From: a virus
Lineage: Duplodnaviria; Caudoviricetes
Virus record (IMG/VR): IMGVR_UViG_3300042901_000537
Span: 1-27,789 of that record
Length of the DNA: 27,789 nucleotides
Strand: one strand, 5' to 3'
Positions 1 through 10,795 of this stretch are shown piece by piece. A model generated the notes under the pieces. That model was not told the DNA's origin, searched no databases, and worked only from the letters and a program-made list of their open reading frames with translations. Positions within the stretch are counted from its first letter, which is position 1, and each line of letters starts with the position of its first letter. The translations under genes were made by a program, and so were the position numbers.

Positions 1-2030
1 GTATCAAACACTCTTGTTATATCGCTGAATGCAGAAGTTGCTGCTTCAATCATATCACCCACAGTTGGAGCAGCTGCATCTAATGTGCCCATTGTTGGCA
101 TTTTTAAATTAGGTGCTGCAGCTGGTGTTGAAGAAGGTGCTGATGCACTGGCTACAACAGGATTAGGTGATGAAGTGCCTGCTGATGATGCTAAAGAAAT
201 ATCACCAGCGTAAGAATTAACTTTACTTAATAATGATGCACCATAACCACTATTTAAGTTTAAATTGCTTCCGCCAATTGATTGAGTCACGGCTCGATTA
301 GCTTCTTCTTGTGTATTAAAAGATTTTCGTAAATTGGCATCTTTAATATACCTTGCTGCAATTCTAGCCGCAACAACTGGATCATTAGCTAAATCAGGGT
401 TGTCAACTAAAGGTAGATTTAAAGCTTTACCCATAGACGCATAGTTATTCTTACCTGTCAACTGAATAAACCCTCTTCCTCGATATTTAAACCCATCACC
501 AGGTTCCGTATTACCCATTTTTCCACCATAGACCAATTCAGCTAAACCTTGTGGATTATTCGTATATTGTTTAAGTTGTTCGTCAGATAAATTTTTCGTT
601 CTTGTTGGAAATACTTCTTTTAATCTTGCTGTTGACGTATAGTTTAAATTTTCACTAGCTGGTTTAAATCCCGATTCTTTTTTAATATTTGCTAATAATG
701 CAATTTGAGTTTTTTCATCAGTTATTCCCTCTTGAGCAAAAGCAGCCATTAAATCTGATTGTATTCCTCCTGGTTTTGGATACATTCCAAAAGCTGCGCC
801 GCCAGAACCAGTTGTTATAGGTGTTGTTGAGGATCTTGTTGGTGATGTTGTAGGAGACTGAGGCGCTGGTGTAGGAGCAGGCGTTGATGCCACTGGTGTT
901 TCAGTTTGCGTTTCACCATTTGGTTTGCTACTGCTAAATCTTCTCATCTCAGCTGCATCAATACTTCCATCAGCCTGGCTTTTTAATGCACCAGCATGTT
1001 GTATATCTTGTTGTTCTTTAACAACACGAGATTCTTTAATTTCGATAGCTCTTTTACCTGATGCTTCAGCCTCAGCAATTTTAGCTCGCAACTCATCTTT
1101 AGTTCTTATTTCACCTGAGGTAAAGTCGGATAGCTCTTCATCGGTTCTATCATCTTTTAGATAGGATTTCAACTCATCATTTATTAAAAAAGTTCTTCTT
1201 GCAGATTTTGAGGCTTGACTACCTCTGTCTTGAGCTATACGCAACTTTTGTTTTTCTTGTGTATTTGCTTCTGAGTTCTTTTTATCAAGTAAATCCATTA
1301 ACCATTTTGCAGATACTAATGCAGCTGCAATTCCCAAAAATACTGGATTTGTTAATATTGGTAATAGTGTGCGAAGTGCGCCACCCAAACCTTTCATAAT
1401 ATCTAAACCAACACCAAATATTTTTCCCAAGTTTTCTGTTGAAAATATGGTTCCTAATACTCCAGTTATAGCTGCTGCAATCGTTGTTCCCATACCCATT
1501 ATTGAACCTAAAATTCCTTTATCTTCTTTTTTAGGCGCTTGTTGTGTAGGTGAAGTGGAGGGTTTTGTTTTTTCTTTACGAAATTGAGTTTCGTAAGAGG
1601 CTTCATTCTCACTAGCCTTCTTGAAGAACATGTCAGCACCTTCTCTTGGAGTGCCACCTTGTAGTTTAACCAATTTGCCAATATTTTGCCTCATCACATT
1701 CATATCTCTGGCCATACTCGGTAGAGACATAGAATTTTTAGCAGAAATTGTAGAGCTAATTTTCACATCTCTAAATTCTGAAATTAAACCATCAACATTT
1801 CCTAAAGAAGAACTCTGTGTAGTTGAAAGTTCTTTCACTTTGTCAGCTGGGGTTGCTTTGTAAGCTTTAAATACTGAAGGCAGGGCCGCAGCTAACAAGC
1901 CCTTTTGGTCAAACATTTGCCTTGGATCAATTTTTTCCAAAGCTCTTTTACCAAAAGTTGATGCTAGGCCTCCGCCTTTTGCCTTTTCAGATTTATAGAT
2001 TTCTGCTAATCTACTTGTTTTATCTGCCAT
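1..2030 (-). CDS. Tape-measure/gp29-position tail protein with a GH19 (chitinase/lysozyme-like) domain; 3' end runs off the window
   Basis: Not in the ORF track. Manual translation from ATG at 2030 gives MADKTSRLAEIYKSEKAKGGG..., open to base 1 (>676 aa). Hydrophobic segments at about 1300-1520 (GILGSIMGMGTTIAAAITGVLGTIF; PVFLGIAAALVSAKWLM), a Pro/Thr/Ser linker at about 800-920, and GH19 motifs KESGFKPASENLNY and GDGFKYRGRGFIQLTGKNNY (about 441-500). The tape-measure call rests on position after tube initiator/gp26/gp51. Confidence 0.8.
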   Translation of the reverse strand, partial: MADKTSRLAEIYKSEKAKGGGLASTFGKRALEKIDPRQMFDQKGLLAAALPSVFKAYKATPADKVKELSTTQSSSLGNVDGLISEFRDVKISSTISAKNSMSLPSMARDMNVMRQNIGKLVKLQGGTPREGADMFFKKASENEASYETQFRKEKTKPSTSPTQQAPKKEDKGILGSIMGMGTTIAAAITGVLGTIFSTENLGKIFGVGLDIMKGLGGALRTLLPILTNPVFLGIAAALVSAKWLMDLLDKKNSEANTQEKQKLRIAQDRGSQASKSARRTFLINDELKSYLKDDRTDEELSDFTSGEIRTKDELRAKIAEAEASGKRAIEIKESRVVKEQQDIQHAGALKSQADGSIDAAEMRRFSSSKPNGETQTETPVASTPAPTPAPQSPTTSPTRSSTTPITTGSGGAAFGMYPKPGGIQSDLMAAFAQEGITDEKTQIALLANIKKESGFKPASENLNYTSTARLKEVFPTRTKNLSDEQLKQYTNNPQGLAELVYGGKMGNTEPGDGFKYRGRGFIQLTGKNNYASMGKALNLPLVDNPDLANDPVVAARIAARYIKDANLRKSFNTQEEANRAVTQSIGGSNLNLNSGYGASLLSKVNSYAGDISLASSAGTSSPNPVVASASAPSSTPAAAPNLKMPTMGTLDAAAPTVGDMIEAATSAFSDITRVFD

Positions 2031-2217
2031 TTGCAACCCTTTGTTGTTCTAATCTTTGTTTTTCTTCTTCAAGGTGCTTCATTAACATATCGATATAAAT
2101 TTGTCTTTCCCAAGGTATCATATTATCCAATTCAGTCAAACTATATTTGTGATACTGCATCAATGCAAAATTAGTTTGATAATAGTTTAATAAACTATCA
2201 TGGGAAAGACTTATACG
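2020..2217 (-). CDS. gp51-like baseplate hub assembly domain, probably expressed as a -1 frameshift extension of the gp26-like gene
   Basis: Open frame RISLSHDSLLNYYQTNFALMQYHKYSLTELDNMIPWERQIYIDMLMKHLEEEKQRLEQQRVANGR*, a motif set typical of small 'gp51' ORFs in aquatic T4-likes. The first in-frame TTG/ATG is at 2163/2160 (46 aa from the ATG), after the recognisable SH..L.NYY.TNFAL segment. The stop overlaps the start region of the next gene. Confidence 0.8.
   Translation of the reverse strand, partial: RISLSHDSLLNYYQTNFALMQYHKYSLTELDNMIPWERQIYIDMLMKHLEEEKQRLEQQRVANGR
2103..2210 (-). promoter_or_regulatory. Nested inverted repeats; candidate frameshift-stimulatory RNA structure
   Basis: Perfect 10-bp pair gtctttccca (2103-2112) / tgggaaagac (2201-2210). 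Inner pairs tcaaacta (2136-2143) / tagtttga (2172-2179) and atagttt (2182-2188) / aaactat (2192-2198). Confidence 0.6.
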
Positions 2218-2936
2218 AAAAAATTTTGAATTCCTTCTAATACAATATCTTCTTCATATTTACATTTTGCACATTTAAATTCTAATTTCTTTTCAAATTT
2301 TGGCATTGTATTAAAGAATTTTTGAATTTTTTCTAAATCATCTTGTTGCATACTATCAATAAAGTCCATTAATTCTTCTCTTGTAGCATCTTTTGAATAG
2401 TAAATTTGGTTATCATCATAAATGTAATCTATACATTTAACAATTAGTTCCATTATTCCATCAAGGTCGTTTAGATTTTTAACATTAACATCATTGACCA
2501 TTTGAAATGTTGGATACTTCATTACTAATCCAAGTTTGTCAGTAATAACAATCTTGTTTGAATGCTCTTCACTCATTTTTGGTTGCAATTCTAATATGTT
2601 CAAATCAAATTTTACAACCGAATTGCAAGGTTTATCATCTACTGTATTGTTGCAATTGTATCTCAAATTTACAACCTCACCTACAGACCTAGCTCTTAGT
2701 TGAATGAATAGATGTTCAAGGTCAAAAGTTGGTAACTCATCAATGTCCACCTTACTTAATAGGCAATTGTTTAGAATTTGTTTAATGATATCGACCGACT
2801 CTTTAATTTCACCCGATTCGGAAGCCATTAAAAATAGTTTTTGTTCTTTCACAAGAAACGGTCTAAATTTTACTATTTTGCCTGTTGAAATTAGTTTAGT
2901 CTCATAAATCGGCACATCAATTTTTGGTAAAGCCAT
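2211..2936 (-). CDS. gp26: T4 gp26-like baseplate hub assembly protein (putative tail assembly chaperone)
   Basis: MALPKIDVPIYE...VKFRPFLVKEQK, FDLEHLFIQLRARSVGE, MKYPT, C-terminal CxxC (KCAKC) and LEGIQNFF end. GAGGA Shine-Dalgarno upstream. Confidence 0.88.
   Translation of the reverse strand: MALPKIDVPIYETKLISTGKIVKFRPFLVKEQKLFLMASESGEIKESVDIIKQILNNCLLSKVDIDELPTFDLEHLFIQLRARSVGEVVNLRYNCNNTVDDKPCNSVVKFDLNILELQPKMSEEHSNKIVITDKLGLVMKYPTFQMVNDVNVKNLNDLDGIMELIVKCIDYIYDDNQIYYSKDATREELMDFIDSMQQDDLEKIQKFFNTMPKFEKKLEFKCAKCKYEEDIVLEGIQNFFV
2217..2226 (-). promoter_or_regulatory. Overlapping -1 ribosomal slippery heptamers (A AAT TTT and T TTT TTC)
   Basis: Minus strand reads CAA AAT TTT TTC GTA TAA. 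Both heptamers fit X XXY YYZ in the gp26 frame, and a -1 slip enters the gp51-like frame at CGT ATA AGT CTT TCC CAT. Confidence 0.75.
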
Positions 2937-2951
2937 ATTATATCCTCACGT

Positions 2952-3746
2952 TTAAAAAATAACTCTGGTTGCTGGTGTAATTAGTCTCTCTGAAATACTA
3001 GTACCAGCTTTGTCGAAGAATCTGGATGCTTTGTCTCCAAATAGTTGAGCTGCAGCAGCTGCAATATCATATTGACCTTGATAGACCACACGATACTTTT
3101 GATAAGCAAATTGAATCGTTAGCCTATGAAATCCTTCTTCAGACCAAGATAAAGGTTGCGATACAATTGAAATTGGAAAAGCATCAATCATTTCAATTGC
3201 ATATATTTGTTTGATGAAATCATCATACTGAATAACTTTAATGTTAGTCATGTAGCGAGTGTCTTCACCTTTTGGAAAACGCAAGTTATTGGTATCAGAT
3301 GGCATAATTGCTTCGATCCAACGGTCAAATAACTTACGCTCATAAAATTCATTTGTACACAAGAATGTTAGTGTTGTAGTTCCATCTTGGTATTGTGTTT
3401 GATATGGAACTTTAAATATTGGTCCATAAATTTTAACATCAGCAGTCACTAAAGATTTACCAGGCAATTCAGCACTCTCGCATTGTAGTGCCAAATATCT
3501 TGAAATGGCAGCATTACTGCTTTTGCCTTGAGCATCAGCTGGCTCACTTCCTAAGATTTGATTGATAGCATCAGAAACATCAGTTACAATTGTATTTGGT
3601 AAATTAATTAGTTTTTCTAATGTGGATGTTTTTATAAATTTAGCAATGTATTCTGGAATAGGAAGAATAACCTCAAATCGGTTATTTTTAGCTAGACCAT
3701 CTTTAGTTTTAATATTAGATAAAAATGATTGTGGTGTGAAAGCCAT
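2952..3746 (-). CDS. gp54-like baseplate tail-tube initiator (tail tube fold)
   Basis: GLAKNNRFEV, LQCESAELPGKSL, YGPIFKVPY, ERKLFDRW and DAFPISI...LSW...LTIQFAY are tube-family motifs. Context is consistent. Confidence 0.75.
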   Translation of the reverse strand: MAFTPQSFLSNIKTKDGLAKNNRFEVILPIPEYIAKFIKTSTLEKLINLPNTIVTDVSDAINQILGSEPADAQGKSSNAAISRYLALQCESAELPGKSLVTADVKIYGPIFKVPYQTQYQDGTTTLTFLCTNEFYERKLFDRWIEAIMPSDTNNLRFPKGEDTRYMTNIKVIQYDDFIKQIYAIEMIDAFPISIVSQPLSWSEEGFHRLTIQFAYQKYRVVYQGQYDIAAAAAQLFGDKASRFFDKAGTSISERLITPATRVIF

Positions 3747-6667: not shown

Positions 6668-8010
6668 GTGAATATAATTTAAAACAAGCAACAGACTTTG
6701 ACATACGGGAGTTAACAATTGTTACTAACCGTGGCCCATTTGACTTGCGAGGAATGTTTCAAGAGCTAAACATCTTTGATAGCGTCTTGTCTCCATGCAT
6801 GACAGGCAATCTTTTAATTGTTGACTCATTGGGTTTATCTGAAAGCTTATTGTTGGATGGAACAGAAATTCTTTTGATTGATATTGAAAAAGGTGATGGA
6901 CTAGAACCACTAAAGAAAAGATTTAGGGTGTTTAGTCAAAAGAACCGAAATCAATATAATCAAACAAGCGAAGCTTATGTGTTAATGTTTGCATCGGAAG
7001 AATTTATTCTATCTGAGCAACAGAGAGTTAGCCAGCACTATGAAGATACCTATTCCGAAATTATGTATAGTATTCTTCAAGACTATTTGAAACCTGCAAA
7101 CGGCAAATTGGGTGGAAATTTTGATGATTCTCTTGGTTTAACAAGCGTGGTTATTCCATTTTTAAAACCATTTGACGCTATCAATTGGTGTGCTAAGCGA
7201 GCAATTGGTACAAATGATAAACCTAATTTTGTATTCTTTGAAAATTTGGATGGTTTTAATATCTGTTCTTTAGATACAATTATCGAATCTGATTCTATAA
7301 TGGAATTAGTATTCTCACCTAAGAATTTAAATTACCTATCCAATACAAGCTTTGATGAAGAATTCTTCGGTGTTAGAGCTATGCAAGTCATTACACAAAA
7401 TGATTTTGTAAAGAAAACAAGAGCTGGTGTTTTTGCAGGCAGTGTTGTTGGATTTGACCCAATTACTCGTACAGTAAAGAAAACAGTTTACAACTTTAAT
7501 GATGTTTATAATGACACATCACATTCAAATCCAAATCCAATAATATCACAAGATAAAAATAAAACAGGTAAAACAAATTATGAGATGCAAAATGCTAGAC
7601 AACTCGTATATTTGGATACTTCTTCTAGGGACACCAGTGAATATTTAAATGAAAAAGATGCTGAGTCTTTGCAAGTTAAAGATGTTCCACAAAAGTATAT
7701 TTTTCAAAGACAAGCCATTTTTCAAAACTTGTTTACACAAAGAGTTAAATTAGTCTTACCTGGAAACTTTTTGGTAACCTCAGGTAAGATGATAGATTTG
7801 AATGTTCCTCGTTATGGTGTTCATGCGGCAGATGATGATAATTTTGATATGACATTAAAAGGCACTTATATGATAGCGGCTACACGCCATATTATACGAT
7901 ACACTGGTTGCGAAACTATTATTGAAGTTGTGACAGATTCTACTGAAAGAGTGAATGTTCAACCAAATACAGCCGAAAAAGAAGAAACGATGACTTGGTA
8001 TGATAACTGA
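6664..8010 (+). CDS. Probable baseplate hub protein (gp27/VgrG-N-like)
   Basis: 448 aa between gp53 and gp5. ELNIFDSVLSPCMTG, KPFDAINW, FVFFEN..GF, and a C-terminal PGN...G.YMIAATRH pattern typical of hub proteins. Confidence 0.65.
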   Translation: MSEYNLKQATDFDIRELTIVTNRGPFDLRGMFQELNIFDSVLSPCMTGNLLIVDSLGLSESLLLDGTEILLIDIEKGDGLEPLKKRFRVFSQKNRNQYNQTSEAYVLMFASEEFILSEQQRVSQHYEDTYSEIMYSILQDYLKPANGKLGGNFDDSLGLTSVVIPFLKPFDAINWCAKRAIGTNDKPNFVFFENLDGFNICSLDTIIESDSIMELVFSPKNLNYLSNTSFDEEFFGVRAMQVITQNDFVKKTRAGVFAGSVVGFDPITRTVKKTVYNFNDVYNDTSHSNPNPIISQDKNKTGKTNYEMQNARQLVYLDTSSRDTSEYLNEKDAESLQVKDVPQKYIFQRQAIFQNLFTQRVKLVLPGNFLVTSGKMIDLNVPRYGVHAADDDNFDMTLKGTYMIAATRHIIRYTGCETIIEVVTDSTERVNVQPNTAEKEETMTWYDN

Positions 8011-9118
8011 TTACAATAATAAGCCTTTTCTTTACCATGGAAAAATTGAATCGATTGATGATCCTGCAGAGCTTCATCGTATGCAGGTTCGTGTCTTTGA
8101 ACTACATGATACAGATGTAACGAAGATACCAACAGAAACTCTTCCTTGGTTTCAACCGTTATTCTCAATAAATGCAGCTAATAGTGCTTCAGCACCAAAT
8201 GTTGGTGATTGGGTTCTAGTTTATTTTCCTGACCCCGAATCGGCACAATTTGGTTATGTCATGGGTACTTTGCCAGGAATTGTATCGGAAACTACTGAAC
8301 AAACAGTATATTCCACACAAACAAGACCAGTTAAACCAGCTGGTGATCCAGCAGGAACAGTAGGACGACCATCTACACCTCCATTATCCAGAAAAGTGGT
8401 TGCGGGCACAGGCGTGGATAGAAGCAACAAATCACTAGTCCATGTGTGTGATATTACACATGAAACTAATCGTGTAACTAATGCTATGCGTAGACAATTT
8501 AGTGAAGTGGTTGCAGCTATTAAAGAAGCAATTTCTGCCTTATTGAAAGCATTAGGTTTTGCCGACCCCTCTGGTGAAATATTAAAGTTGACAGAATTGG
8601 CCAAAGATATTGCAAGAAAGATTAAAAAAGTAACAGACTTTGTGAGAGATATTAATAGTACCATTGCAGAATATTTAAAAATCATTAGACAGATTAGAGC
8701 TATGATTGCTTATATTTTAAGTTTGCCTGGAAGACTTTTAGCTGAGTTTCAACAATGTTTGGCTAACTTGTATAAATCTTTATTATCAGGATTCACGTCA
8801 GCGTTTGCAGAAGTTGGCAGTATAGGTGATTTAGCAGAGTTAGCTGAAGCAGTTAATACAGTTACAACAGAAATTCAAGCTGCTGCAACTCAAGTGGCTA
8901 TATTAGCTAGCACACCACAACAGTTGGCTGCGGTTGTATCTACACCTTCAAGCTCTGCGGATATTGCTAGAGCTGAACAGGACTTTACAACTTATATGAC
9001 TTCAGATGGATTATTCAATTCTTTGGTTCCTTCTCCATCTTCTTTACAACCTTCCGCAGAAGCAACAGCTGTGGTTAGTTCCAATATTGTTGATTTTAGT
9101 AATGGAAAAATGGCTTAA
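8000..9118 (+). CDS. gp5 N-terminal part: OB-fold followed by a long helical region, no lysozyme domain
   Basis: GKIESIDDP..L.RMQVRVF.LH...IPTETLPW...P.VGDWVLVYF.D..AQ..VMGTLPG is the gp5 OB-fold. The remainder is an Ala/Leu/Ile-rich amphipathic helical sequence. Confidence 0.82.
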   Translation: MITDYNNKPFLYHGKIESIDDPAELHRMQVRVFELHDTDVTKIPTETLPWFQPLFSINAANSASAPNVGDWVLVYFPDPESAQFGYVMGTLPGIVSETTEQTVYSTQTRPVKPAGDPAGTVGRPSTPPLSRKVVAGTGVDRSNKSLVHVCDITHETNRVTNAMRRQFSEVVAAIKEAISALLKALGFADPSGEILKLTELAKDIARKIKKVTDFVRDINSTIAEYLKIIRQIRAMIAYILSLPGRLLAEFQQCLANLYKSLLSGFTSAFAEVGSIGDLAELAEAVNTVTTEIQAAATQVAILASTPQQLAAVVSTPSSSADIARAEQDFTTYMTSDGLFNSLVPSPSSLQPSAEATAVVSSNIVDFSNGKMA

Positions 9119-9120
9119 AC

Positions 9121-9930
9121 ATGGCAGTAGATAACGCTTATTCACCACCAGATTATAGTTGGCTTCAGAGAGAGTCTGAGGCTTCGGTGGAAAATCCACC
9201 AAATTTTCCAGATAATAATTCACAACAAACTAAATCTGGTCACATTTTTGAAATGGATGATACATTTGGTCGTGAGCGTATTCGAATTCACCATAGAACA
9301 GGCACCTTTGTTGAAATGCATTCTAATGGTGACGAGACACATAAGATAACTGGTGATGGTTATGAAATCATTGCAGGCAACAAATATGTACACATCAGTG
9401 GTTTTTGTAACATTACAATTGAAGGTGATGCAATCGTTAATGTCAAAGGTAATAAAACTGAGCTGATTGAGGGTAATTATAACCAAGTTATCAAAGGTGA
9501 TTTTATCCAAGTTGTTAAGGGTGAATCAAGAATGTTATCTGATGGAAATATGACAGTTGGTTGTGGTTCAGATTTTCTTGGTTCATTAAGACTTGTTACT
9601 GGTGACCACTTGAGATTAGAAGGTGATTTGTCTGTGAATGGTGGTATCTCAGCTACAAACATAACTAGTGATGGTTGGGTTGCTGCGGCACAAGGTGTAA
9701 ATGCGGGACCAAAAGGATTTGTTTCTTTACTTGGTGGTTTATCCGTTGGTATTCCAATTGCAGTTCCTGGTTGTGTAAATGCTTTAGTTGAAGTTAAAGC
9801 GCCGCTAGGAACTTTTGGCACAATGTCTGCTATTTTAATGACAGATATGATTAATACAAAAATATTTGATACTCACATCCATATGGCCAGAGGTCCAACC
9901 TCACCGCCAATTTCTGGACCAATGATTTAA
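9121..9930 (+). CDS. gp5 C-terminal part: beta-helical spike ending in an HxH motif
   Basis: TKSGHIFEMDDT.GRERIRIHHRTGTFVEMH, then 8-residue repeats (ITIEGDAI VNVKGNKT ELIEGNYN QVIKGDFI QVVKGESR), ending FDTHIHMARGPTSPP. Confidence 0.85.
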   Translation: MAVDNAYSPPDYSWLQRESEASVENPPNFPDNNSQQTKSGHIFEMDDTFGRERIRIHHRTGTFVEMHSNGDETHKITGDGYEIIAGNKYVHISGFCNITIEGDAIVNVKGNKTELIEGNYNQVIKGDFIQVVKGESRMLSDGNMTVGCGSDFLGSLRLVTGDHLRLEGDLSVNGGISATNITSDGWVAAAQGVNAGPKGFVSLLGGLSVGIPIAVPGCVNALVEVKAPLGTFGTMSAILMTDMINTKIFDTHIHMARGPTSPPISGPMI

Positions 9931-9940
9931 GGATTATATT

Positions 9941-10795
9941 ATGGCTTCACTATTCTCACGATTAAACTATACGTATACTGACCCAAACTCAATAATCAGT
10001 ACATTGTCTGATGACGTTACACGAACATTAGATTCTATGCCAAAGATGTTAACACAATGGCAAGCCGATGATGTTGCTAACAGTAATACTGGCGGTTACT
10101 TTGTTAATCCTTGTGCTAATATCACATTAAGTATTTGGGCTTCATCAAATAATTTAGTATCTGTAGCTAATAATGTCCAAGGTTCTGGTAATTTGACTGG
10201 CCTTTGGACTCAGATTACCACCACTTTTGCTTATATCAGTAACAGTTCTACCAGTAATACTCAAGCTGGAGATTTTTTAGCACATACAAATAGAATATCT
10301 GGTGTGACTTCTATAACTGTATCGGCCGACCAAGGAGTTGCTAACTTGCCTCATTATGAAACTGCGGTGCAAACAGGCAAAGCAATGGTATCTCTAATAT
10401 ATCAAACTGATGGTGTATCCAATAATGCACCAATTATGGGTAATTTTACAAGCTTGTTTGTGGCGAATGACTTGATTGCAATCTACAACACAATGTCCAC
10501 ATATGCAAATACTATTAACAATAGCATTTCAATTTCTGGTTCTGGAAGTGAGATGGATCCATTTATTCGCACTTCAAATTTGACATATAATGTGGTAAAT
10601 GCCATAGCAACAACTGCCAATACTGCGAATTCTATATTCTATGACCGCAGAAAACATGATGAACAATTCTATAAAAACTCAATTGATATTTTGAATGATT
10701 ATAAAAAAGTTAGAGGAATTGGAAATTCCGGCCAATCTGAAGATTATTTAATTAAAAATTACATTGGATCCGACAAACTTCTTTCCAGGTTGTAA
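9941..10795 (+). CDS. Hypothetical virion/baseplate-associated protein
   Basis: 284-aa ORF with AAGGA SD, between gp5C and gp25. No family recognised. Confidence 0.7.
   Translation: MASLFSRLNYTYTDPNSIISTLSDDVTRTLDSMPKMLTQWQADDVANSNTGGYFVNPCANITLSIWASSNNLVSVANNVQGSGNLTGLWTQITTTFAYISNSSTSNTQAGDFLAHTNRISGVTSITVSADQGVANLPHYETAVQTGKAMVSLIYQTDGVSNNAPIMGNFTSLFVANDLIAIYNTMSTYANTINNSISISGSGSEMDPFIRTSNLTYNVVNAIATTANTANSIFYDRRKHDEQFYKNSIDILNDYKKVRGIGNSGQSEDYLIKNYIGSDKLLSRL

Follow-up and report, generated by a model that had tools for sequence, protein, structure and literature searches.

In this work we analyse the end of a gp26-like gene in a 27,789-nucleotide stretch of viral DNA (IMG/VR record IMGVR_UViG_3300042901_000537, positions 1 to 27,789; the whole stretch is here called the window), which was recovered from lake-water metagenomes and carries the tail and baseplate module of an uncultured phage of the T4 superfamily. 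Most probably (we put it at about 90%), ribosomes translating this gene undergo tandem -1 slippage of two tRNA-Phe on the heptamer U UUU UUC, giving a major short product (TAC-N, from tail assembly chaperone, TAC) and a minor extended one (TAC-NC), predicted to act as chaperones of the phage lambda gpG/gpGT type. This reading is carried by the heptamer itself, the -1 frame behind it, the conservation of both, coding selection in a segment devoid of a start codon and the in-register homology of the extension to gp51 of phage T4, all of which were observed. The locus is a further example of an arrangement that a publication of 2022 had put forward for T4-like phages.

The sequence known for this phage is the window alone, and a set of 194 loci was used for comparison: the window, 167 IMG/VR loci and 26 isolate records. 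Setting aside 14 T4-type loci (10 distinct phages) and 5 truncated ones left 175 loci with adjacent parts, 17 isolate genomes among them. Dereplication at the protein level yielded 112 loci at 90% and 42 at 70%, and counts out of 112 given below refer to the former. Lineages similar to Ackermannviridae and Schizotequatrovirus are represented in the set by single isolates only.

Slip site and reading frames in the window

The 3' end of gp26 reads CAA AAT TTT TTC GTA TAA and contains two heptamers of the X XXY YYZ type, A AAT TTT and T TTT TTC. No stop interrupts the -1 frame between TGA at 2256 and TAA at 2022; it has no ATG, GTG or TTG upstream of TTG 2163 and ATG 2160, and the first 19 codons of the gp51-like part (TAC-C) are without a start of their own. 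The predicted slip product would consist of 240 + 65 = 305 amino acids and would be made beside the product of 241 amino acids, just as had been described in the initial annotation of the window. Pairing with the anti-Shine-Dalgarno (anti-SD) sequence amounted to +2.0 kcal/mol before ATG 2160, compared with -6.0 for gp26, -6.1 for the tube-fold gene and -4.5 for the next gene. All features of the locus are listed in Table 1.

Table 1. Features of the chaperone locus and its direct neighbours in the window
Feature	Position	Strand	Remarks
Putative tape measure gene, large, >676 aa, cut by the window edge	1..2030	-	two hydrophobic segments, GH19-type lytic domain
gp51-like C-terminal part (TAC-C), -1 frame, 65 codons + stop	2020..2217	-	phrog_634 E 4e-28
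Weak hairpin rich in A/U, 15 nt to the 3' side of the heptamer, questionable as a stimulator	2179..2201	-	-6.1 kcal/mol
gp26-like gene, short form (TAC-N), 241 aa	2211..2936	-	PF12322 E 2e-63, phrog_150 E 1e-70
Slippery heptamer T TTT TTC, predicted site of -1 slippage by two tRNA-Phe in tandem	2217..2223	-	conserved T TTT TTY
Internal AAGGA resembling a weak SD, 8 nt to the 5' side of the heptamer, may be a stimulator	2232..2236	-	dG -5.7
Tail-tube-fold gene, gp54/gp19-like	2952..3746	-	phrog_45 E 5e-32, phrog_3629 E 2e-26

Across the 21 open reading frames (ORFs) of the window, an in-frame T TTT TTY was found at 3 of 9,099 codon positions, yet relatives carry it at this very spot in 173 of 175 cases, so its presence at the end of gp26 is beyond chance.

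As the break lies within a T run of an uncultured contig, a homopolymer error of sequencing or assembly could be suspected, the true gene then being one in-frame fusion like T4 gp51. The junction is not an assembly error, because contigs from three of four independent runs bridge it without a gap (in the fourth, short overlaps alone cover it), and the same junction is present in 175 loci including the 17 isolate genomes. This explanation, to which we assign a practically negligible probability, is considered refuted.

Conservation of the frame and of the heptamer

The C part lies in the -1 frame relative to gp26 in each of the 175 loci with adjacent parts, and T TTT TTY occupies the slip position in 173 of them (110/112 and 40/42 after dereplication at 90% and 70%, respectively), in agreement with the constant frame and the T run conserved at the nucleotide level that had been predicted for such junctions. 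The residue preceding the two phenylalanines (FF) differs between loci, being Ser (AGT, TCT), Asn, Asp, Ala or Gly, and its codon ends in T in all 173 FF loci. The first Phe codon is TTT in every FF locus, compared with 71% TTT elsewhere in the same genes. Both heptamers had been put forward as slip sites; A AAT TTT is poorly conserved (56/175 loci, 18/112 at 90% dereplication) and was rejected as the main one.

The 10 T4-type phages served as a control, and T TTT TTY was found in none of them (0/10); these phages have a separate full-length gp51. In six of them FF is written TTC TTT and preceded by a purine, FF is missing from three, and the remaining one reads GAG TTT TTT. Since T4-type phages can keep FF without T TTT TTY, the pair is partly a protein motif, with a choice of codons that follows the need of the slip.

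An extended product could also arise from slippage of RNA polymerase on the run of six T's, as one extra U in the mRNA would lead to the same protein, and the site in the window is A4T6. Polymerase slippage usually needs runs of about nine, and six T's are shorter. The run is bounded by TTC, and thus held at six, in 170 of the 175 loci, the A's are not conserved, and the run keeps a constant phase, that of X XXY YYZ. Moreover, the SD-like GAGG and the hairpin of cyanophage-type loci, described below, sit at ribosomal distances. We consider slippage of the polymerase very unlikely.

Coding of the segment without a start codon

The -1 frame is free of constraint upstream of the slip, where 90 of the 112 loci have a stop within 10 codons. 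The first -1 codon after the slip (+1), still located inside gp26, encodes Arg in 97/112 loci (T4 gp51 has Lys here), while the overlying gp26 residue varies (A, G, V, E, D). Among 101 ungapped loci, 29 (the window and 28 others) have no start codon before a conserved NF. In their segment after the gp26 stop, stops were present in none of the loci in the -1 frame and in 22 and 28 loci in the other two frames, and the synonymous fraction was 0.37 in the -1 frame versus 0.09 and 0.12 in the others. Judged from these substitution patterns, codons +3 to +16 of the window lineage are under coding selection despite the lack of a start before +19, which is in line with the expectation that homology would extend upstream of the first Met. 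In the window and the 28 other loci the second ORF is thus without an independent start and appears to be coding from the slip onwards.

The gp51-like part might instead be a separate small protein, produced by reinitiation after the gp26 stop or by a start at ATG 2160. An ATG is found at +3 or +4 in 65 of the 112 relatives, often as TAATG/TGATG or TAAGTATG, and Met occurs at +20 in 76/112. Database annotation of gp51 begins at the ATG 3-4 codons after the slip, and GenBank records annotate a separate gp51 of 30-63 codons. The claim that the second ORF has no canonical start holds for the window's clade but not throughout the family, because in many relatives, mostly cyanophage-type, an ATG directly follows the stop of gp26; the absence of a Shine-Dalgarno (SD) sequence before the ATG stands for these relatives as well. 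Anti-SD pairing of -4 or better precedes 1% of 75 early ATGs versus 43% of gp26 starts, and the record of Shigella phage Ag3 remarks on its gp51-like ORF 'no identifiable ribosome-binding site'. Position +4 is a hydrophobic residue rather than a start, since it is M in 58, L in 30 and F in 19 of the 112 loci. In the window, selection acts on codons that precede any available start, and a separate protein would leave the invariant T TTT and the Arg at +1 unexplained. For these reasons we regard an independent gp51 as very unlikely.

Relation to T4 gp26 and gp51 and predicted fold

Both parts belong to the T4 gp26/gp51 family (PF12322, phrog_150, phrog_634), the N part being similar to gp26 and the C part to the C-terminus of gp51; a search of NCBIfam returned no family. 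Over its whole length the window gp26 is similar to T4 gp26 (E 3e-11 when four sequences were searched), and residues 3-248 of T4 gp51 match the gp26-family profile phrog_150. The post-slip peptide aligns in register with residues 200-246 of T4 gp51, from the second Phe on and with one gap further down, as well as with residues 197-248 of phiAS4 gp51, so that the comparison of the fusion with full-length T4 gp51 gave the predicted outcome. According to these alignments, T4 gp51 is composed of a gp26-like domain and a C-terminal part homologous to the post-slip peptide. T4 uses a pair of diverged genes and is devoid of the heptamer (GAG TTC TTT), whereas in the window one gene would give both forms. 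Leiman et al. 2010 (PMC3004832) list T4 gp26 (208 aa) and gp51 (249 aa) as hub assembly chaperones, and one GenBank record already labels gp51 'tape measure protein assembly chaperone'.

The structure of the short form was modelled with AlphaFold2 from 35 sequences (predicted local distance difference test, pLDDT, 85). Out of 48,161 chains the model best matched 3FGX (Z 7.5, root-mean-square deviation (rmsd) 3.9, 85 aligned), followed by 3KLU (Z 7.1, rmsd 4.3, 85 aligned), 2OB9, which is the HK97 tail assembly chaperone (Z 7.0, rmsd 3.6, 82 aligned), and 5IR0 (Z 5.8, rmsd 4.1, 83 aligned), with the next row at Z 4.2. All four matches cover residues ~1-95 of the model. Of these chains 2OB9 is the sole one titled as a chaperone; 3FGX and 3KLU presumably share the TAC fold. 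Foldseek against the PDB gave no match at E <= 0.001 for the gp26 model, with 2OB9, 3FGX and 5IR0 appearing as weak rows with E above 1. The predicted N-domain of gp26 thus best matches the HK97 chaperone fold, at moderate scores, which supports the assignment of gp26 and gp51 as putative T4-family counterparts of lambda G and GT made in the initial annotation. The HK97 chaperone chain has 104 residues and gp26 has 241, the latter with an extra C-terminal domain containing Cys pairs.

Proposed course of the slip

If the slip takes place as predicted, some of the ribosomes on gp26 would move back by one base at U UUU UUC, two codons before the stop, with the two tRNA-Phe probably re-pairing from UUU UUC to UUU UUU. 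The slipped ribosomes would read on into the gp51-like frame and yield the long form, presumably the minor product, the short form being the major one. By analogy with lambda, and in view of its position, the short form may coat the tape measure protein encoded by the next gene, with the C-terminal extension of the long form linking it to tube assembly. In phage T4 each of the two forms has a gene of its own, 26 for the short and 51 for the long one.

Sequences flanking the heptamer

Immediately 5' of the slip, 89% of the 112 loci have an anti-SD pairing of -4 or better, versus 10% of random internal sites. Most of this SD-like pairing is explained by the residues E-G (synonymously recoded -5.2 versus observed -6.8), although the observed pairing is stronger in 85/112 loci, and the Glu codon upstream of the slip is GAG in 64/96 loci versus a background of 30%. 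GAGG, ending 9 nt upstream of the heptamer, is present in 56 of 67 cyanophage-type loci and in 3 of 28 of the window's clade, where the residues E-G account for most of the SD-like signal.

The sequence directly 3' of the stop folds more stably than its synonymous recodings (mean z -2.8, with 68/112 below -2), and three control windows for the same test gave z of -0.3 to -0.4. Mean downstream folding reaches -3.8 kcal/mol in the window's clade versus -12.6 kcal/mol in cyanophage-type loci. The 87-nt region at the hairpin of the window has a folding z of -2.4, and RNAalifold on 21 members of the window's clade gave no consensus structure downstream of the heptamer.

In 41 chosen cyanophage-type loci, an 11-bp hairpin located 5-6 nt after the heptamer had 81.6% of cells paired, with 16 changed on both sides, the structure having been drawn from the same sequences. 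None of 500 shuffles was paired as highly; by two stricter measures the hairpin was not significant (63 and 30 of 500 shuffles). In the hairpin of P-SSM2 (L081:1920-1950) and L105-L184, a change at the third position of an Ala codon has its counterpart in the other arm, where Glu/Val/Ala interchange. The hairpin of these loci also buries the annotated ATG of gp51.

The E. coli dnaX signal, as given by Yan et al. 2015 (PMC4344849), comprises an SD 10 nt upstream, the heptamer and an 11-bp hairpin 6 nt downstream. Cyanophage-type relatives have a similar layout, and the heptamer differs, being A AAA AAG in dnaX and U-rich here. In the window's clade both flanking elements are weak or missing, and a stable hairpin about 6 nt downstream, as in dnaX, was not found in the window, which has its weak one at 15 nt. 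The dnaX-like combination of upstream GAGG and downstream hairpin in cyanophage-type loci is possibly a new detail.

A wider proposal, advanced tentatively and at somewhat less than even odds, is that the T4 superfamily outside the T4 group tunes the ratio of short to long chaperone by a full, undescribed dnaX-type signal. In cyanophages it would consist of an SD in conserved L-E-G codons, U UUU UUC and the 11-bp hairpin burying the annotated gp51 ATG; the lake clade may have lost these two helpers so that the heptamer alone serves for the slip, and for Ag3-like phages four T's may be enough.

Neighbouring genes

On the minus strand the tube-fold gene is followed by gp26, the gp51-like segment and the large gene that extends past the window edge. 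Of the expected order of tube gene, slip site and tape measure gene, the window shows a tube-fold gene upstream and a large, tape-measure-like gene downstream. The upstream gene may be a gp54-type tube initiator, because it is so annotated in two relatives, and in Ag3 and Vibrio phage D509 gp5 follows in place of the tape measure gene.

The large gene overlaps the stop of TAC-C by 11 nt and had no match to any tape-measure profile. Tape-measure-like genes of complete relatives in the clade (L002-L078) encode 543-825 aa with divergent N-termini, and in Caulobacter phage Cr30 a large gene two places downstream is annotated as tape measure. Between the gp51-like ORF and the large gene, Cr30, Melnitz-3 and IG49 have a small gene of 82-121 aa with hydrophobic segments (L082:2072-2320, L090:1725-2054, L193:1753-2118).

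Elsewhere in the window, on the plus strand, gp5 is split over two ORFs, 8000-9118 and 9121-9930, the N part being an OB fold extended by helices and the C part a beta-helix. No lysozyme-family match was found for these two ORFs; a GH19-type domain is present in the putative tape measure gene. A 284-aa ORF at 9941-10795 (+), between the C part of gp5 and gp25, had no PHROG or Pfam match.

Discussion

Several observations weigh against the proposed slip or its generality. Two phages depart from the conserved heptamer, Ag3 with A ATT TTC and D509 with A CTT TTC. The early ATGs, mostly those of cyanophage-type loci, could allow for a separate small protein, and the structural matches reach only moderate values, with Z below 8 and a Foldseek E of more than 1. 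The window's clade is without conserved downstream structure or strong SD, and the efficiency of the slip there may therefore be low. Finally, the loci are related by descent, so their counts are not independent events.

In Ag3 (L086:1980-1995) and D509 (L085:1857-1872) the -1 frame is kept with four T's and a TAATG overlap. Slip of a single tRNA and coupled reinitiation are both candidates at these four-T sites.

Programmed -1 frameshifts producing lambda gpG/gpGT and P2 gpE/E' are said to have been described by Levin in 1993, Christie in 2002 and Xu in 2004. The locus in the window resembles them in that a short chaperone gene has a slip site near its end, is overlapped there by the -1 frame and precedes a tape-measure-like gene. 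The slip site of lambda is G GGA AAG, unlike the T TTT TTC found here.

The genes for chaperones of tail assembly in T4-like phages were reportedly identified by Vladimirov, Gautam and Davidson (Virology 2022, PMID 34826709). PMC12846349 (2025) cites Vladimirov et al. 2022 where it speaks of poly-T signals for the -1 slip in the TAC-N genes of such phages, and PMC10885494 cites it for some T4-like phages that do not frameshift but have a short gene together with a long, fused one. The supposition that no such frameshift had been described for this group has to be abandoned; the genes and the claim are the same, and the window adds another, uncultured lake-water lineage. The abstract of the 2022 study reportedly states that the frameshift seems to take place in several T4-like groups and that T4 uses genes 26 and 51. 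A literature search, with most subscription journals outside its scope, found no experimental test of the gp26/gp51 slip.

By the sequence evidence presented here, the frameshift signal in the window phage is real and well supported, and the annotation of the window should be corrected from gp26 plus a small gp51 ORF to one frameshifting chaperone gene. That T4-like phages obey the tail-chaperone rule, T4 itself having exchanged the slip for two genes, is in print as a bioinformatic prediction. If the proposed dnaX-type tuning is true, hundreds of annotated 'gp51' genes would not be independent proteins.

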